The notes under the pieces are model-generated. The model worked only from the letters and a program-made list of their open reading frames with translations. It was not told where the DNA came from and made no database searches. From Baaleninema sp. (GTDB lineage Bacteria > Cyanobacteriota > Cyanobacteriia > Cyanobacteriales > Geitlerinemataceae), in NCBI RefSeq assembly GCF_049974805.1, contig NZ_JBNGCO010000001.1:23502-87501 (forward strand): a stretch of DNA of 64,000 nucleotides, in the 5' to 3' direction. The position numbers were made by a program, and so were the translations under genes. How positions within the stretch are numbered: the first letter of the stretch is position 1; each line of letters starts with the position of its first letter. This document shows, piece by piece, positions 15,712 through 25,343 of the stretch.

Positions 15712-18435
15712 TTACAGCCGACTCAACCGATCTTGTAACATGGCGACCTGCGTTTCAGCTTCCGCTAAAGCGTCCCGCGCCCCTTGGACGACGGCTTCTG
15801 GGGCTTTGTTGACGAAGTTGGGATTTCCCAACCGTCCGGCGTAGGACTTGACTTCGGCTTGGGCTTTCTCGAGTCTTTTTTCTATTTTGGCGCGAATTGC
15901 ATCGATGTCCACAACTCCGGCCAAAGGAATTAACACTTGTACTGTACCCACAACGCCCGCAATGGTTTTTCCGGAATCGCCATTGAGGTTTTCGGCAATT
16001 GTAAGCTGGTCTTGACCGACTCGCGCCAGGTTTTCGATGTAAGGTGCGCCTTGGGTTAAAATGTCCCGTTCGCGATCGCTATCGCTTTGTAACATCGCCG
16101 CAATGCGAACGCTGGGTTTGATTTCCAATTCGGCGCGGAGGTTTCGCAGGGTGCGAATGGCGCCAATCACGAGGTCGAACGCTTCTTCTAAATCGGGATC
16201 GATCGCAGACTCCTCTGTTTTAGGATACCCTTGCACCGCCAAACAGGTTTCTTCTCCCGTTTGGGTCAAAGTGTGCCAAATTTCCTCAGTAATATGGGGG
16301 AGAAACGGATGCAGCAGTTTCAAAATCCCGTCGAGGACGAAAGCCAGGGTTTGCTGTGCGACGCGCTTGGTATCGGCGTCGTCTCCCTGTAAGCGGGGTT
16401 TGACGAGTTCGATGTACCAGTCGCAGAAGTCGCCCCAGATGAATTCGTACAGTCCCTTAGCCGCTTCTCCCAAGCCGTAATGACTGAGGTAGTCGTCGGT
16501 TTGACGAACCGTTTGGTTGAACCGCGACAGAATCCATTTGTCCGCCAGTTCTAACTTATCTGCGTCGGGATGTCCCAGTTGTTGAGGTGTCTGTTCCTCC
16601 AGGTTCATCATCACGAACCGCGCCGCGTTCCAGAGTTTGTTAGTGAAGTTGCGGGAAGCTTCGACGGAGGCGGATTCGTCTTTCTTTCGATCGTACTCTA
16701 ATCGAATGTCCTGACCCGCGCCCGCCACTTCTCGAATCATCGTATAGCGCAGAGAATCCGTCCCGTATTTATTAATGAGTAACAGCGGGTCGATGCCGTT
16801 TCCGGCAGATTTGGACATTTTCTTATTGTTTTCGTCCCGAACTAAGCCGTGGATGTAGACATCCTTAAACGGCATTTGTCCGGTAAAATGTCCCGCCATC
16901 ATCGTCATCCGGGCAACCCAGAAAAAGATGATATCGAAACCCGTCACCAGGGTTGTGGTGGGATAGTATTTCGCTAAATCTTTCGTTTCGTGAGGCCAAC
17001 CCATCGTTGAAAACGGCCACAATCCCGAAGAAAACCAGGTATCTAACACATCGGGGTCGCGCACCAATTCCACATCGTCGCCAAATTGAGATTTCGCCTT
17101 TTCTAAGGCTTCTTCGTCGCTTTTCGCCACCACGAAGGGGGTGCTGTCGGTGATTTCGCCGTTCGTTTCGCTGACAGCGTACCAGGCGGGAATTTGATGT
17201 CCCCACCAAAGCTGACGGGAAATGCACCAGTCTTTCAGGTTCACCAGCCAATCGCGATAGACCTTTTTCCAGCGTTCGGGGACGAAGTGAGGCGCGTCGG
17301 ATTCGTCGAGACAGTTGAGGGCGAAGTCCGCCAGGGGGTCGATTTTGACGAACCACTGGGTAGACATGAGGGGTTCTACGGGAACTTTACCGCGATCGCT
17401 GTAGGGAACGGTGTGGCTGTAGTCTTCGACTTTGACCAAAAAGCCTTCTTCCTCAAGGCGTTTGACGACGTTTTTCCGCGCCTCGAAACGGTCTTGTCCC
17501 TGGAACTCGCCTGCGTTCTCATTGAGCGAGCCGTCCTTATTCATTATGTTAATTTTGGGCAGTTGGTGCCGTTGCCCCATCTCGAAGTCGTTGGGGTCGT
17601 GGGCGGGGGTCACTTTCACGCATCCGGTGCCGAATTCGCGATCGACCAGTTCGTCGGCGATAATGGGAATCTCCCGTTTCATCAACGGCAACGTCACGGT
17701 TTTCCCGATAATGGACTGGTAGCGATCGTCTTCGGGATTCACCGCCACCGCCGTATCGCCTAACATGGTCTCGGGGCGCGTCGTCGCCACTTCCACATAT
17801 CCCGAACCGTCACTGAGGGGATAGCGGAAATGCCACAGATGACCTACCACTTCTTTCTGTTCGACTTCCAAATCGGACACCGCCGATTGACTTTCGGGAC
17901 ACCAGTTAACGAGATAGTTTCCGCGATAAATCAGTCCTTCGTTGTAGAGGCGCACGAAGGCTTCTAACACCGCTTCCGAGAGTCCTTCGTCCATAGTGAA
18001 GCGTTCCCGCGACCAATCCACGGACACCCCCAAACGGCGAAGTTGGTTGACGATTTTTCCGCCGGATTCGATTTTCCATTTCCAGGCGCGTTCGAGGAAT
18101 TTTTCCCGTCCGAGTTCGTGGCGATTCGTTCCTTCAGCTTTGAGTTGCTGGTCGAGAATGGTTTGGACGGCGATGCTGGCGTGGTCGGTTCCCGGTAGCC
18201 AAAGGGTGTTGCGTCCCTGCATCCGGTGGTAGCGAACCAGGGTGTCGATGAGCGCACTTTCAAAGGCGTGACCCATGTGCAAGCTTCCCGTCACGTTCGG
18301 CGGCGGTATGACGACGCAGTAGGGTTCGCCGGGGGCGTCGGGGTCGGCTTTAAAGACGTGGCGGTCTTCCCAGTATTGTTGCCATTTGGCTTCGGTTTCG
18401 GTGGGGTCGTACTGCGAGGGAAGATTGACGGTCAT
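15712..18435 (-). CDS. valS: Valine--tRNA ligase
   Basis: Class I HIGH motif ([13 protein letters not shown]) and KMSKS motif (KKMSKSAGN), plus C-terminal coiled coil. The ORF extends to 18603, but the conserved N-terminus [19 protein letters not shown] starts at the ATG at 18435. Confidence 0.95.
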
Positions 18436-19336
18436 CGTTAAGGTCGCGACAGTGAGTTTACGAAAATATGCAATCTTTTCGATTGTACCTTGTGGGGATG
18501 TCGGGGGGATGCGATCGGGGGATGCGATCTTTGGGATGAGATAGGGGGCGAGATAGGGCTGAAAACGGGCTGTTTCTGATGCGATCGATCCCACCCTTGC
18601 CATCCTCTCTGCCTGAACCTTGTGTTTATAGCGGTCGCCCTGTTCCGTTCGACCCTGCTGTAGACTCGCTTTTCTCTCCCTCGGAGCAGGCGAAATCCGG
18701 TGGTTTTGTGAACTTTTGTAATAATTCAGGACGTTTGACGTAAAACTCGCCGTTTTTTGCCGAGAGATATATAGAGCCTCTTAAGAGGTGACACCATCGT
18801 TTCTCTAACTCTGAACTGTACTGGTTTGGAGGAGGGACAAGTCACAGTTGGTGAGGAGAAACCAAATCATCATGAGTTAGCCATATTTATACGTAATTCG
18901 ATCGACCTAACATTTAAGTAGTTTTTCGTAAATACGAGAGTTAAATGTCAGGTTTTCTTAATAGGTGAAAGTCCAAATTCTTTCATTATTGTTTTGCTGC
19001 TTTTTTTTAATTTAAAAAGCATTAAATTTTTATAAAAAACACCAGTTATGGCTTGATTGCCTATAAAATAAAGGATATAAAAAAATGAGTTCTTCACGGG
19101 GCAGTTTTGGGGTTATAAAACCTCGGCGATCCGTGAAAAGATCGAGATTATCAAGCCCTTTTTATGACGAGAATACAAAAGTGATTTAGCACTGCTGTAG
19201 ATAGAGGTGTCTAAATACTGAGGATTTCTAGGGTTCTAAATGGGGGCTTATATGGTTTTCTTGAAACTACTGAATACAGCAAAGAAGAACTAGAATCACC
19301 AATAAAATCTAAAGCAATCACAACCCAAAACTAACC

Positions 19337-19660
19337 ATGTCACACGCTAGTAATGTTTCAAAAGCACGAATTTTAAAGTGGGTTTCTGGTGGGCTAGAAG
19401 CGGCTCTTGGTATTCCGGTTTTAGGCGGAACAATAATTGTAAGTCTTGCTTGGACTCCACTCATTGTTACCTTAGCCTTACACATTGTTACCGTTGTGTT
19501 ATCTAAGCAAGAGAATCGTCCGATCGCGGGCAATGTTCTCGGTATTGTGACATCTTGTATCGGATGGATTCCTGTTGTGGGCATGATTATGCACATTATT
19601 ACTGCGGTCTTTGTCTTGGTAGAAGCGGGTTCTAATAAAACCCTGGATTCGCGTAATTGA
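19337..19660 (+). CDS. Small hypothetical membrane protein (3-4 predicted TM helices)
   Basis: 107-aa ORF in an AT-rich islet. Alternating hydrophobic stretches (GIPVLGGTIIVSLAWTPLIVTLALHIVTVVL, GNVLGIVTSCIGWIPVVGMIMHIITAVFVLV). The antisense ORF looks non-coding. Confidence 0.5.
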   Translation: MSHASNVSKARILKWVSGGLEAALGIPVLGGTIIVSLAWTPLIVTLALHIVTVVLSKQENRPIAGNVLGIVTSCIGWIPVVGMIMHIITAVFVLVEAGSNKTLDSRN

Positions 19661-19981
19661 TAAGCATTGCCGGGTGCATCCCGGGGATATGGCTCACACT
19701 TAAATACATATTGCATGTATTTTGTCAATCCCCGATCTCGAAAAGTTTTCTGCACCACTGAGAGGCCGCAAGTGCTTGAGAACCAGTCGATCGAGGAGTT
19801 TGGGGGGTTGCGGTGTTTCGATCGCTCCAGCTACGGTAAAAGTCTCCAATATGGAGTATTATCCCACAACTGTGGGATAACCTCATAAGACCGAGGTGAA
19901 ACGCCCGCTTGTTCGCAAACATTTCTATATCAAAGATATGTTTGTTGAATTTTCAGTCACTTTTGAACAGGAGGATGAAGA

Positions 19982-20335
19982 GTGGATCGGATTGTAGATA
20001 AAATTGCTGCGTTAGGAGTGCCTGGTTTAGTTCTTCTAGTTGCTATGGCTGTTACAGGTTGGGCTGGCGCAGCAGCAATTACAGCCGCTTTAGCTATGCT
20101 TGGTGGTCCTTTTGGGATGTTAGGAGGAATTGCTGTACTTGGAATTTTGGCATTAATCTCTCAAGGGTTAACAGAATATGGATTTGAAAAAATATTTCAG
20201 GCAGTTGTAGACGAACTTCGCAGGCAGGGAAAGTCCATATATGATATTGAAAGAGAAGTTTTATCATATCCTATTTCACAAGATCTCAAGTTAAAAATAA
20301 AAAATTATCTTCAAGAAATTGACGAGAAAAAATGA
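19982..20335 (+). CDS. Small glycine-zipper membrane protein with charged C-terminal helix
   Basis: 117-aa ORF. GTG start 7 nt after a strong aggagg SD. Gly/Ala-rich TM region (AMLGGPFGMLGGIAVLGILALI). The stop overlaps the next start (ATGA). Confidence 0.6.
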   Translation: MDRIVDKIAALGVPGLVLLVAMAVTGWAGAAAITAALAMLGGPFGMLGGIAVLGILALISQGLTEYGFEKIFQAVVDELRRQGKSIYDIEREVLSYPISQDLKLKIKNYLQEIDEKK

Positions 20336-20781
20336 GTAATTATTTTGAGAGATTTGCACGTCAGTTAGCCCAAGATGCTTTCAAAAGAACAGGAGAATTA
20401 ATCATTGACGTTTGCCACGATCGAATCCCTGTTCTAAAACCCGCGATTGAAGAGTTACAGAATGGAACTCGTCGTTATCCTAAGTCAAAAACTTCCCAAA
20501 AGGAAAGAGTGATTCGCGATCGCTTGGCTGCAGGAATGTCTGGTAGTCGAACCGAAGTAAAAACTGCTACGGGAAAGATTGACATTCTGACAGCTTCTCA
20601 AGTAATCGAAGTAAAAAATGTTAGGCAGTATAAACACGCGATCGGGCAAGTTCTGAGCTACAGCCATTACTATCCCAAGCACGAACGATGTATTTACCTG
20701 TTTGGTAAAGTTTCTGCGAAACAGCGTAGATCGATTGAGAAGGAATGTAAGACGGCTAAAGTTACAGTTGTATTTGTGTAG
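20332..20781 (+). CDS. PD-(D/E)xK-type nuclease-like protein
   Basis: 149-aa ORF translationally coupled to the upstream gene. Motif E75...D84 (GKIDIL)...E93-V-K95 (VIEVK)...Q106 matches the restriction-endonuclease-like fold signature. Confidence 0.55.
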   Translation: MSNYFERFARQLAQDAFKRTGELIIDVCHDRIPVLKPAIEELQNGTRRYPKSKTSQKERVIRDRLAAGMSGSRTEVKTATGKIDILTASQVIEVKNVRQYKHAIGQVLSYSHYYPKHERCIYLFGKVSAKQRRSIEKECKTAKVTVVFV

Positions 20782-20888
20782 TTGCCTATTGTGTCTCATC
20801 ATTCAGTGCAGGGGACGGACGGGCGATCGCCGATCTTATAAGTTGGGTCGATCGATCCCGTAAAAGATTATTATCCGACAGGTACTCC

Positions 20889-21101
20889 ATGTGAATTACA
20901 CTCGATGTCGATGAATCCCTGGTCAGTGAAGCATTACAACTCACTAACCTGAGTACGCAAGAAGATTTGATAAAAGAAGATTTGATAAATCTTGCCTTGC
21001 AAGAACGGGTTTGATCGCGCCGCAAGAAAAACCTTCTCGACTTAGCCGGGAAAATTCAGTTCGCTTCCGAGTTTGATCGTAAGGCTCTACCTGCAACTCG
21101 T
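20889..21101 (+). pseudogene. Decayed VapB-type (DUF2191-like) antitoxin gene
   Basis: Reads M*ITLDVDESLVSEALQ, then a +1 shift, then LTNLSTQEDLIKEDLINLALQERV*SRRKKNLLDLAGKIQFASEFDRKAL. It has a stop at codon 2, one frameshift near 20940 and a TGA where the paralogue at 24.4 kb has CGA. Confidence 0.6.
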
Positions 21102-21172
21102 CTGTTTCAGGAGTCCGCGATCGCTTTTTGGCACGGTAAAATGGAGTAGATACACCGTTCCACGAGCGATCG
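21102..21172. repeat. About 70-nt dispersed repeat, copy 1 (second copy at 25221-25289)
   Basis: ctgt..ggagtccgcgatcgctttttggcacggtaaaatggagtagatacaccgttccacgagcgatcg. About 92% identical to the second copy over the 63-nt core. Confidence 0.75.
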
Positions 21173-21205
21173 CATCATGTCTGAAACCACCGAAAATCGG
21201 GGTTT

Positions 21206-24384: not shown

Positions 24385-24610
24385 AATCTAGCTTTGCACG
24401 AACGGGTTCGATCGCGCCGCAAGAAAAACCGTCTCGACTTAGCCGGGAAAATTCAGTTCGCTTCCGAGTTCGATCGTAAAGCTCTTCGCGCAACTCGTCA
24501 TGTTACCGATCGATACATCTGTTTGGATTAGCCTGTTTCGCGATCGCAGTGGTCGAGTTCGTCTGACCGAGAAGTTTGGAATGGATTCCACGGGATACAC
24601 TTGATGCATG
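24385..24610 (+). pseudogene. Remnant of a vapBC module: 3' part of vapB plus a truncated 5' part of vapC (PIN)
   Basis: ...NLALHERVRSRRKKNRLDLAGKIQFASEFDRKALRATRHV overlaps an ATG at 24500 giving MLPIDTSVWISLFRDRSGRV... (PIN N-terminus), which stops after 36 codons. No 5' half of vapB is present. Confidence 0.6.
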
Positions 24611-25220: not shown

Positions 25221-25289
25221 CTGTCGGGAGTCCGCGATCGCTTTTTGGCACAGTAAAATCGAGTAGATGCACTGTTGCACGAGCGATCG
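25221..25289. repeat. About 70-nt dispersed repeat, copy 2
   Basis: ctgtcgggagtccgcgatcgctttttggcacagtaaaatcgagtagatgcactgttgcacgagcgatcg. See copy 1 at 21102-21172. Confidence 0.75.
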
Positions 25290-25343
25290 AGTCCTCTCTC
25301 AAACAGTCGTTATTCTTGTTGTAACATTCTGAGGGTAGAAGCA

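Follow-up and report, generated by a model that had tools for sequence, protein, structure and literature searches.

A coupled gene pair of cyanobacteria encoding a small membrane protein and a predicted PD-(D/E)xK nuclease: a possible membrane-tethered nuclease in two parts

Background

Why should the gene of a small membrane protein run, through an overlap of its stop codon, straight into the gene of what appears to be a nuclease, and what could two such products be doing together? The question is raised by a locus of the cyanobacterium Baaleninema sp. (RefSeq assembly GCF_049974805.1), where two genes of this kind, designated here tm117 and nuc149, lie within a stretch of 64,000 nucleotides (nt) from contig NZ_JBNGCO010000001.1 (positions 23,502 to 87,501); this whole stretch is what we call the window, and window coordinates are counted from its first letter. 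A preliminary description of the locus had taken tm117 and nuc149, together with a third gene for a small membrane protein, tm107, to be a single AT-rich cassette of "pore-like" membrane proteins and a nuclease, situated in a defense and toxin-antitoxin (TA) island and typical of abortive-infection or toxin-immunity modules. All three open reading frames (ORFs) are judged to be real genes because each has homologues, in 242 clusters for tm107, more than 516 for tm117 and 43 for nuc149. We argue below that tm117 and nuc149 form a conserved unit to which tm107 does not belong, and that there is about an even chance that this unit is a membrane-tethered nuclease in two parts, acting against incoming DNA.

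The tm117-nuc149 pair as a mobile two-gene unit

Loci carrying the pair were drawn from GTDB genomes, assemblies and metagenomes, and the homologues of tm117, which are about 114 amino acids (aa) long, are referred to as tm114. A tm114 gene is found immediately 5' of the nuc149 homologue, and on the same strand, in all 22 further loci that have upstream DNA, and no gene besides these two is common to the pair loci, except among near-identical genomes. At the junction in 15 other loci 0-8 nt separate the tm114 stop codon from the nuc149 ATG, and no separate Shine-Dalgarno (SD) sequence is visible for nuc149; this arrangement, like the ATGA overlap in the window, suggests that translation of nuc149 is coupled to that of tm117. 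The two proteins have also diverged in parallel, as pairwise distances among the tm114 proteins correlate with those among their nuc149 partners (Mantel r=0.78, with 0 of 5000 permutations as high), the tm114 proteins being the better conserved (mean pairwise distance 0.25 vs 0.32). On one metagenomic contig (locus L106, positions 1-664) tm114 and nuc149 make up a single in-frame ORF, open to the contig edge, which reads "...VLGVLTMMSQGLVEYGFEQ...YLNDDWEDTAPPVPFPRMG..." and then continues into the nuclease, with a proline-rich linker, and which we read as a natural fusion of the pair. The preliminary description was therefore right, on the evidence of the 22 further loci, to propose that the 117-aa and 149-aa genes are a coupled unit, and we regard tm117 and nuc149 as a conserved, translationally coupled two-gene unit.

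The unit is rare and patchy in its distribution, with 15 loci among GTDB species genomes, and is richer in AT than the DNA on either side of it at all 16 loci compared. Its flanks in 13 other loci hold mostly housekeeping genes, such as those for PPK2, FtsW, NADH dehydrogenase, MutS and RtcB, along with a few Uma2 and IS200 genes, and because of this we take the TA and insertion sequence (IS) neighborhood in the window to be incidental, a setting peculiar to this genome, so that the original argument from a defense and TA island is lost. Conserved synteny and a conserved defense-island context were both considered for the pair and rejected, since the flanks are unshared and mainly housekeeping. 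In the tm114 tree every nuclease-paired member falls inside one cyanobacterial clade, which also includes unpaired members; explaining the distribution of pairing takes 4 gains or losses, of which at least 2 are imposed by branches with good support. Paired and unpaired tm114 loci in our sample have no flanks in common, and therefore the pair appears to move as a unit; the same sample, with its lack of common flanks, shows no case of nuc149 having been gained or lost in place at a syntenic tm114 locus. We conclude from these comparisons that the tm117-nuc149 operon is horizontally acquired or mobile.

In two genomes nuc149 is broken and tm114 intact: a Lyngbya metagenome-assembled genome (MAG; locus L007, 5001-5450) has a nonsense codon at nuc149 residue 62, and a Dapis genome (locus L018, 1355-1729) has a frameshift after about residue 56. 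Such a pattern would suit a TA or addiction module in which nuc149 is a DNase toxin that tm117 sequesters at the membrane, and which persists by post-segregational killing and not through any part in defense. Type II TA operons typically have this gene order, with the neutralizer first, and this coupling through ATGA, the pair has the form of a small, AT-rich, two-gene insert at non-syntenic sites amid housekeeping genes, and in the window it adjoins a decayed TA cluster. However, the supposed antitoxin is the better conserved of the two proteins and is far more widespread alone, the reverse of what is usual for antitoxins; it carries no DNA-binding or autoregulatory domain, and the in-frame fusion of L106 would have joined "antitoxin" to "toxin" in nature. 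We consider a TA module to be an unlikely, although not a negligible, explanation of the pair.

nuc149 as a predicted PD-(D/E)xK nuclease

The full-length nuc149 homologues (about 150 aa) that have a named source are all cyanobacterial. An alignment of 28 sequences, made up of 20 close and 8 distant homologues and including KilA-N and HNH fusions, has as its invariant residues (in nuc149 numbering) E58, E75, G81, D84, I92-E93-V94-K95, K101-H102-A103, G105-Q106 and Y110, the last two forming an invariant Q-x3-Y that follows the E-x-K strand. The E...D-x8-E-x-K...Q signature that had been read from the Baaleninema protein in the preliminary description is present as E75, D84-x8-E93-x-K95 and Q106, and it is invariant in the 28 homologues. 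C139 is nearly invariant, and a C-x2-C-x5-C cluster is absent from the alignment.

In an AlphaFold2 model of nuc149, residues 61-149 are predicted with high confidence (predicted local distance difference test, pLDDT, 91-97), and residues 1-52 make up a conserved, helical N-terminal region of low model confidence. The modeled order of elements (helix 53-67, strands 73-77, 82-86 and 90-96, helix 97-110, strand 118-124, helix 129-141 and strand 145-148) contains the alpha-beta-beta-beta-alpha-beta core that a PD-(D/E)xK fold requires, and in it helix 1 bears E58, strand 2 bears D84 and strand 3 bears E93 and K95, the positions of the catalytic residues of that fold. The predicted fold and the invariant motif together assign nuc149 to the PD-(D/E)xK superfamily, in agreement with the earlier reading of the 149-aa protein, and its nuclease domain of about 95 residues would be a minimal one. 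Because all of the catalytic residues are strictly invariant, the alignment argues for an active enzyme.

Profile matches below threshold converge on PD-(D/E)xK families. The NucS nuclease domain is matched weakly by 16 of the 28 members, at best with E 5e-4 and a score of 19 bits where the cut-off is 216, nuc149 residues 67-136 aligning to positions 146-225 of the 250 in the NucS model; other sub-threshold matches are to Cas4, XisH and UPF0102 in single members each and to SfsA in two, the next best after NucS being to Cas4b at E 7e-3. NucS/EndoMS and the Cas4/RecB-like nucleases show the same constellation of E, D and E-x-K, followed by Q-x3-Y on the next helix, but both have larger domains than nuc149. 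NucS has, in addition, an N-terminal DNA-binding domain and a clamp-binding tail, a two-domain architecture that is not seen in nuc149, whose N-region is unrelated, and Cas4 has a four-cysteine Fe-S cluster that nuc149 lacks. Sequence and profile searches against the PDB returned no match, and the best nuclease-fold matches in a PDB fold search, to ERCC1, Mus81-Eme1 and Avs4, were weak (E 0.07-0.3). The fold search of BFVD, a database of viral models, returned strong matches (E 6e-11 to 3e-4) to a Tetraselmis virus protein (39% identity, root mean square deviation 1.2 Å) and to mimivirus, moumouvirus and phycodnavirus KilA-N proteins, in their C-terminal parts; phage entries under the names PD-(D/E)XK nuclease, Vsr, endonuclease I and restriction endonuclease followed at weaker values (E 0.002-0.05).

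Relatives of nuc149 in giant viruses and on plasmids

The C-terminal domains of KilA-N and Bro-N proteins are true homologues of nuc149, with 38-47% identity over about half to three quarters of its length, the same residues invariant, and fold matches that reach the lowest of the E-values just given. Distant relatives bear a KilA-N or an HNH-like motif at the N-terminus, and proteins of about 200 aa on cyanobacterial plasmids, most of them conjugative, have a Bro-N or other N-terminal domain followed by a domain of the nuc149 type. The relatives in giant viruses and on plasmids thus carry a DNA-binding domain (KilA-N, Bro-N or HNH) at the N-terminus and have no membrane partner, whereas nuc149 has a short helical N-region in place of that domain and is always coupled to tm114. 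A search of 50,697 phage records for homologues of tm117 or nuc149 found none, a result that is neutral with respect to a role in defense.

With such relatives it may be asked whether nuc149 is a selfish, homing-type endonuclease that has settled 3' of tm114 and spreads along with it, tm117 having some unrelated function. The fusions of its domain to KilA-N, Bro-N and HNH in giant viruses and on conjugative plasmids, the patchiness of nuc149 within the cyanobacterial tm114 clade, with the gains or losses counted above, and the constancy of its neighbor all suit this explanation. But nuc149 has lost the N-terminal DNA-binding domain that such elements carry, has no start signals of its own and relies on translation of tm117; the lack of common flanks between paired and unpaired tm114 loci is that of a pair that moves together, not of a nuc149 that invades a resident tm114; and the proteins have co-diverged and have been fused in frame at least in L106. 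We find a homing element a distinctly improbable explanation.

The relatives of about 200 aa include those on plasmids of Gloeothece PCC 7822, Calothrix NIES-22 and Anabaena sp. 90 (loci L108-L110). On the Gloeothece plasmid the nuc149-type gene lies near a gene for a 3'-5' exonuclease, and on the Calothrix plasmid near one for a 2OG-Fe(II) oxygenase and a second Bro-N gene. These plasmid loci look like a DNA-handling module.

The pair might, in the same vein, have no part in conflict at all, and serve a membrane-associated processing of DNA (in repair, in the handling of chromosomes or plasmids, or in uptake), or nuc149 might be a DNA-binding regulator. Flanks that are mostly housekeeping elsewhere, and plasmid relatives that stand beside the exonuclease, the oxygenase and Bro-N proteins annotated as "DNA-damage-inducible", speak for a role of this kind. 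Rare, patchy and non-syntenic AT-rich inserts fit an accessory gene and not a core function, however, and strictly invariant catalytic residues point to an active enzyme rather than a regulator, and we rate such a role as no more probable than homing.

tm117 and the tm114 family

The tm114 family is large (over 516 clusters at the 90% identity level, 574 representatives at the 50% level), and its sources include many cyanobacteria, Sorangium (Myxococcota), a Chloroflexaceae MAG and diverse metagenomes. tm117 has no match to a Pfam or NCBIfam family, and a fold search of the PDB with it returned nothing below E 7. It is 63-90% identical to 27 members, scores with the tm114 family profile, and shares the motifs LGVPGL, GW-GAAA-T, LGGP-GMLGG and YPIS--LK-KI, which are invariant or nearly so in the family. 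The AlphaFold2 model is all-helical (pLDDT 82) and consists of a short N-terminal helix, a glycine-rich hairpin (residues 13-39 and 43-66) and a three-helix C-terminal domain (residues 68-116).

Some members of the family end in a fused Mrr_cat nuclease (Pfam, E 7e-33), others are joined to GTPases (AIG1/MMR_HSR1), and others again begin with an HTH_3 domain or with ankyrin repeats. Because these partners are all of cytoplasmic domain types, tm117 should be a two-helix hairpin anchor with both of its termini in the cytoplasm, and the description of it as "pore-like" is unsupported. Two longer homologues of 183-184 aa may be mentioned here: P0092 has its cytosolic C-terminal helical domain twice, in tandem, and a weak match to DUF6074, and P0164 matches the tm114 profile in two stretches, which suggests an arrangement like that of P0092. 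Comparison of paired with unpaired tm114 proteins places 4 of the 5 distinguishing positions in the C-terminal domain and none in the hairpin, a weak signal that is confounded by phylogeny. A shared adaptor domain, in which the C-terminal domain of tm117 would resemble the N-region of nuc149, was considered and rejected, with an hhalign probability of 0.1% and a MAFFT alignment that proved to be an artefact.

The genes 3' of unpaired tm114 are highly varied, and include those for an OLD-family nuclease (after a gap of 23 nt), DarT, a DUF4062 protein, BrnT (at three loci) and a PIN protein; these conflict-type genes are instances only, as many neighbors of unpaired tm114 have no tie to conflict systems. 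In Sorangium sp. So ce375 (locus L024, 5001-9122) a tm114 gene, whose product is 67% identical to the cyanobacterial proteins, lies 110 nt 5' of an ABC-3C system. The CTD7 protein of this system has a Cap4-like nuclease as its N-terminal domain, and the other components are MC3 and an ABC ATPase resembling LmuB. The ATPase, middle-component and CTD-effector genes that accompany tm114 there are absent from the surroundings of the pair in the window.

Is the pair a two-part nuclease tethered at the membrane?

PADLOC, Pfam, NCBIfam and PHROGs gave sub-threshold matches only, and no named system fits the pair, as had been supposed from the start; neither the tm117 nor the nuc149 family is described in the libraries searched. 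Among the weak matches, the glycine-rich, hydrophobic C-terminal part of LeoBC is matched by 27 of 28 tm114 members (best E 6e-4), with tm117 aligning to positions 458-556 of the 601 in the LeoBC model, and PADLOC's BnzA and PDC-M09A are matched by many members. The membrane paddle of dynamin-like proteins is hydrophobic and rich in glycine (PMC4159319). LeoBC, however, is a dynamin-like defense protein of about 600 aa with a GTPase domain, whereas tm117 has 117 aa and no such domain, and the LeoBC, BnzA and PDC-M09A matches, being far below significance, are leads and not signs of family membership.

The principle that we propose for the pair has one recent precedent, built from different parts. 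SNIPE (PD-lambda-1) of E. coli is a single polypeptide with a single-pass transmembrane (TM) segment, a DUF4041 domain and a GIY-YIG nuclease; without its TM anchor the enzyme attacks the host chromosome, and when anchored it cuts phage DNA during injection (PMC13190303). A nuclease held at the inner membrane by a TM anchor is what we suggest for tm117 and nuc149 as well, by analogy. Yet SNIPE is one chain, and tm117 and nuc149 are separate proteins that are fused in one natural variant only; SNIPE combines its single-pass TM segment with a GIY-YIG domain, and the pair a two-helix hairpin with a PD-(D/E)xK domain; and neither tm117 nor nuc149 has a match to DUF4041 or GIY-YIG, the pair being unrelated to SNIPE in sequence or fold. 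We think that the pair is probably conflict-related, analogous but not homologous to SNIPE.

On this proposal tm117 would insert its glycine-rich two-helix hairpin in the inner membrane, with its ends in the cytoplasm, and expose the three-helix C-terminal domain there, while nuc149 would be produced by coupled translation, with its family-specific helical N-region and its minimal PD-(D/E)xK DNase domain. The N-region of nuc149, we infer, docks on the C-terminal domain of tm117, and this docking would keep the nuclease at the membrane, distant from the nucleoid. So tethered, nuc149 might cut phage or plasmid DNA that enters through or touches the membrane, or it might be released when the membrane is perturbed. 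Docking, nuclease activity and a role in conflict with mobile DNA are all presumed in this scheme.

Support for the tethered nuclease comes from its two single-chain counterparts, the tm114::nuc149 fusion and the fusions of tm114 to Mrr_cat (e.g. P0210). In the latter the same hairpin module is joined covalently to a PD-(D/E)xK nuclease, although of a different family (Mrr), in single genes from outside the cyanobacterial pair loci. A certain flavor of conflict counts for the reading too, in that unpaired tm114 is found near OLD, DarT, ABC-3C/Cap4-like, BrnT and PIN genes and the pair itself is AT-rich and patchy. Several results weigh in the other direction. nuc149 has no above-threshold match to a curated nuclease family and no Pfam PDDEXK match, and its PDB fold search reached no E-value under 0.04 and returned a mixture of folds. 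tm114 occurs far more often alone than with nuc149, and so has a function independent of the nuclease; no homologous adaptor domain is detectable between tm117 and nuc149 by hhalign; and the mostly housekeeping flanks of the 13 loci leave guilt by association with defense genes weak for the pair. On balance we lean somewhat towards the physical reading of a tethered nuclease, and hold its employment against incoming DNA to be a little less probable than its opposite. An abortive-infection or toxin-immunity role of the pair is possible, but a tethered nuclease is the better fit to the fusions.

A wider proposal may be built on the tethered nuclease, namely that the tm114 hairpin is a widespread anchor or sensor of conflict systems (those of Mrr, OLD, Cap4-like/ABC-3C, DarT and GTPase effectors) and that the pair is a new two-component immune system, in which a nuclease derived from KilA-N/Bro-N proteins would destroy incoming DNA at the membrane with no test of self and non-self by sequence or modification. 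This we advance as doubtful, although it seems to us less so than the TA module.

Layout and composition of the locus

The features of the locus are collected in Table 1. The preliminary description holds for the three ORFs, the aggagg/GTG start of tm117, the overlap at ATGA, the hairpin and the richness in AT. The GTG start of tm117 is corroborated by the homologous loci, since the genes there start at the equivalent codon, ATG or GTG, with the same SD ahead of it, and the module is taken to begin at about 19910, and to extend to 20781, because a leader of 70 nt is 80% conserved with the Symploca locus. The segment 19850-19892, which contains the palindrome, has a folding energy of -15.4 kcal/mol; there is no U-tract downstream of the palindrome, and a terminator scan made no call there. 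The region around the module has no Rfam match and no tRNA, and its counts of promoters and terminators do not exceed those of shuffled sequences. A search for RNA-seq runs containing this DNA found none.

Table 1. Features of the tm117-nuc149 locus, in window coordinates
Feature	Position	Strand	Remarks
tm107	19337-19660	+	ORF, 107 aa; small multi-TM protein; neighbor outside the module
tm117	19982-20335	+	ORF, 117 aa, GTG start; membrane-hairpin protein (predicted)
nuc149	20332-20781	+	ORF, 149 aa; predicted PD-(D/E)xK nuclease domain at residues 53-149
ATGA stop/start overlap of tm117 and nuc149	20332-20335	+	Seen in the sequence
Conserved leader/promoter region of the module	19910-19981	+	80% identity over 71 nt with the Symploca MAG locus (L017)
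Shine-Dalgarno sequence AGGAGG	19970-19975	+	6 nt upstream of the tm117 GTG
Palindrome tatcccaca-ac-tgtgggata	19860-19879		20 bp; in the spacer between tm107 and the module
AT-rich segment with 21-nt imperfect inverted repeats at its ends	18898-20855		Encloses tm107, tm117 and nuc149

GC content dips to 0.34-0.45 at about 18.8-21.0 kb, as compared with 0.52-0.58 in the flanks, and the GC content of third codon positions is 0.21 in tm107 and 0.35 in both tm117 and nuc149, vs 0.63 in valS. Within this dip an inverted repeat (18898-18918 and 20835-20855, 18 of 21 bases matching) brackets an AT-rich block of 1.96 kb; it has only 2 copies in the window, where 0 would be expected (100 shuffles), and could delimit an acquired segment. 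Neither a target-site duplication nor a transposase was seen at these ends. The window pair has valS, an IS200/IS605 element and the remnants of TA genes as its neighbors, the last forming the decayed cluster alongside it, and the DNA just 3' of nuc149 (20988-21187) recurs at 24385-24504 (91% over 120 nt) and 25224-25304 (86% over 81 nt). GCGATCGC motifs are abundant in the window, and all the homologues found point to its being cyanobacterial.

About 733 bp between the start of valS and tm107 hold no credible ORF. The figure of about 730 bp given originally is thus correct, but not the placing of this DNA "after" valS, as that gene is on the minus strand (15712-18603) and the interval is on its upstream side. 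As listed, the valS ORF has 963 aa, about 56 more at the N-terminus than the 907 aa called for the orthologue in a related strain; translation probably begins at an internal Met, which would make the intergenic region longer still.

There remains tm107, and with it the original notion of a three-gene cassette, in which a pore-forming tm107 and tm117 would act with the nuclease as an abortive-infection module in a defense island. All three genes do lie in the single AT-rich block with the 21-nt inverted repeat at its ends, and tm117 is rich in glycine zippers. tm107 is, however, missing from every other locus that carries the pair, beside which it stands in this window only, and it was rejected on that ground as a third component; the defense-island context is not conserved, and the pore reading gives way to that of an anchor with cytoplasmic termini, to which the fusion partners of tm114 point. 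We regard the three-gene cassette as the least probable of the explanations considered here. The 242 homologues of tm107 are overwhelmingly from Bacillaceae (about 60% identity), with few from cyanobacteria, and this distribution suggests an inter-phylum transfer of a small membrane protein. Geitlerinema sp. P-1104 has a homologue that is 81% identical, and in a related strain, with DNA that is 94% identical, tm107 likewise adjoins valS. Some tm107 homologues are named in UniRef as DUF4190-containing, and the window protein has no Pfam match to DUF4190 at E<=1.

Implications

Through the nuc149 domain, genes of bacterial chromosomes are linked to a C-terminal domain, expanded and unannotated, in the KilA-N proteins of giant viruses, and the tm114 family, which is likewise unannotated, has fusion partners so varied as to suggest a reusable membrane module. 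Should the tethered-nuclease proposal prove true, the pair would be a second, independently evolved case of spatial discrimination between self and non-self by a nuclease, a principle that SNIPE established only in 2026. It would also be an example from the cyanobacteria, in which defense has been little studied, and its split, two-protein form would make the tethering genetically separable.

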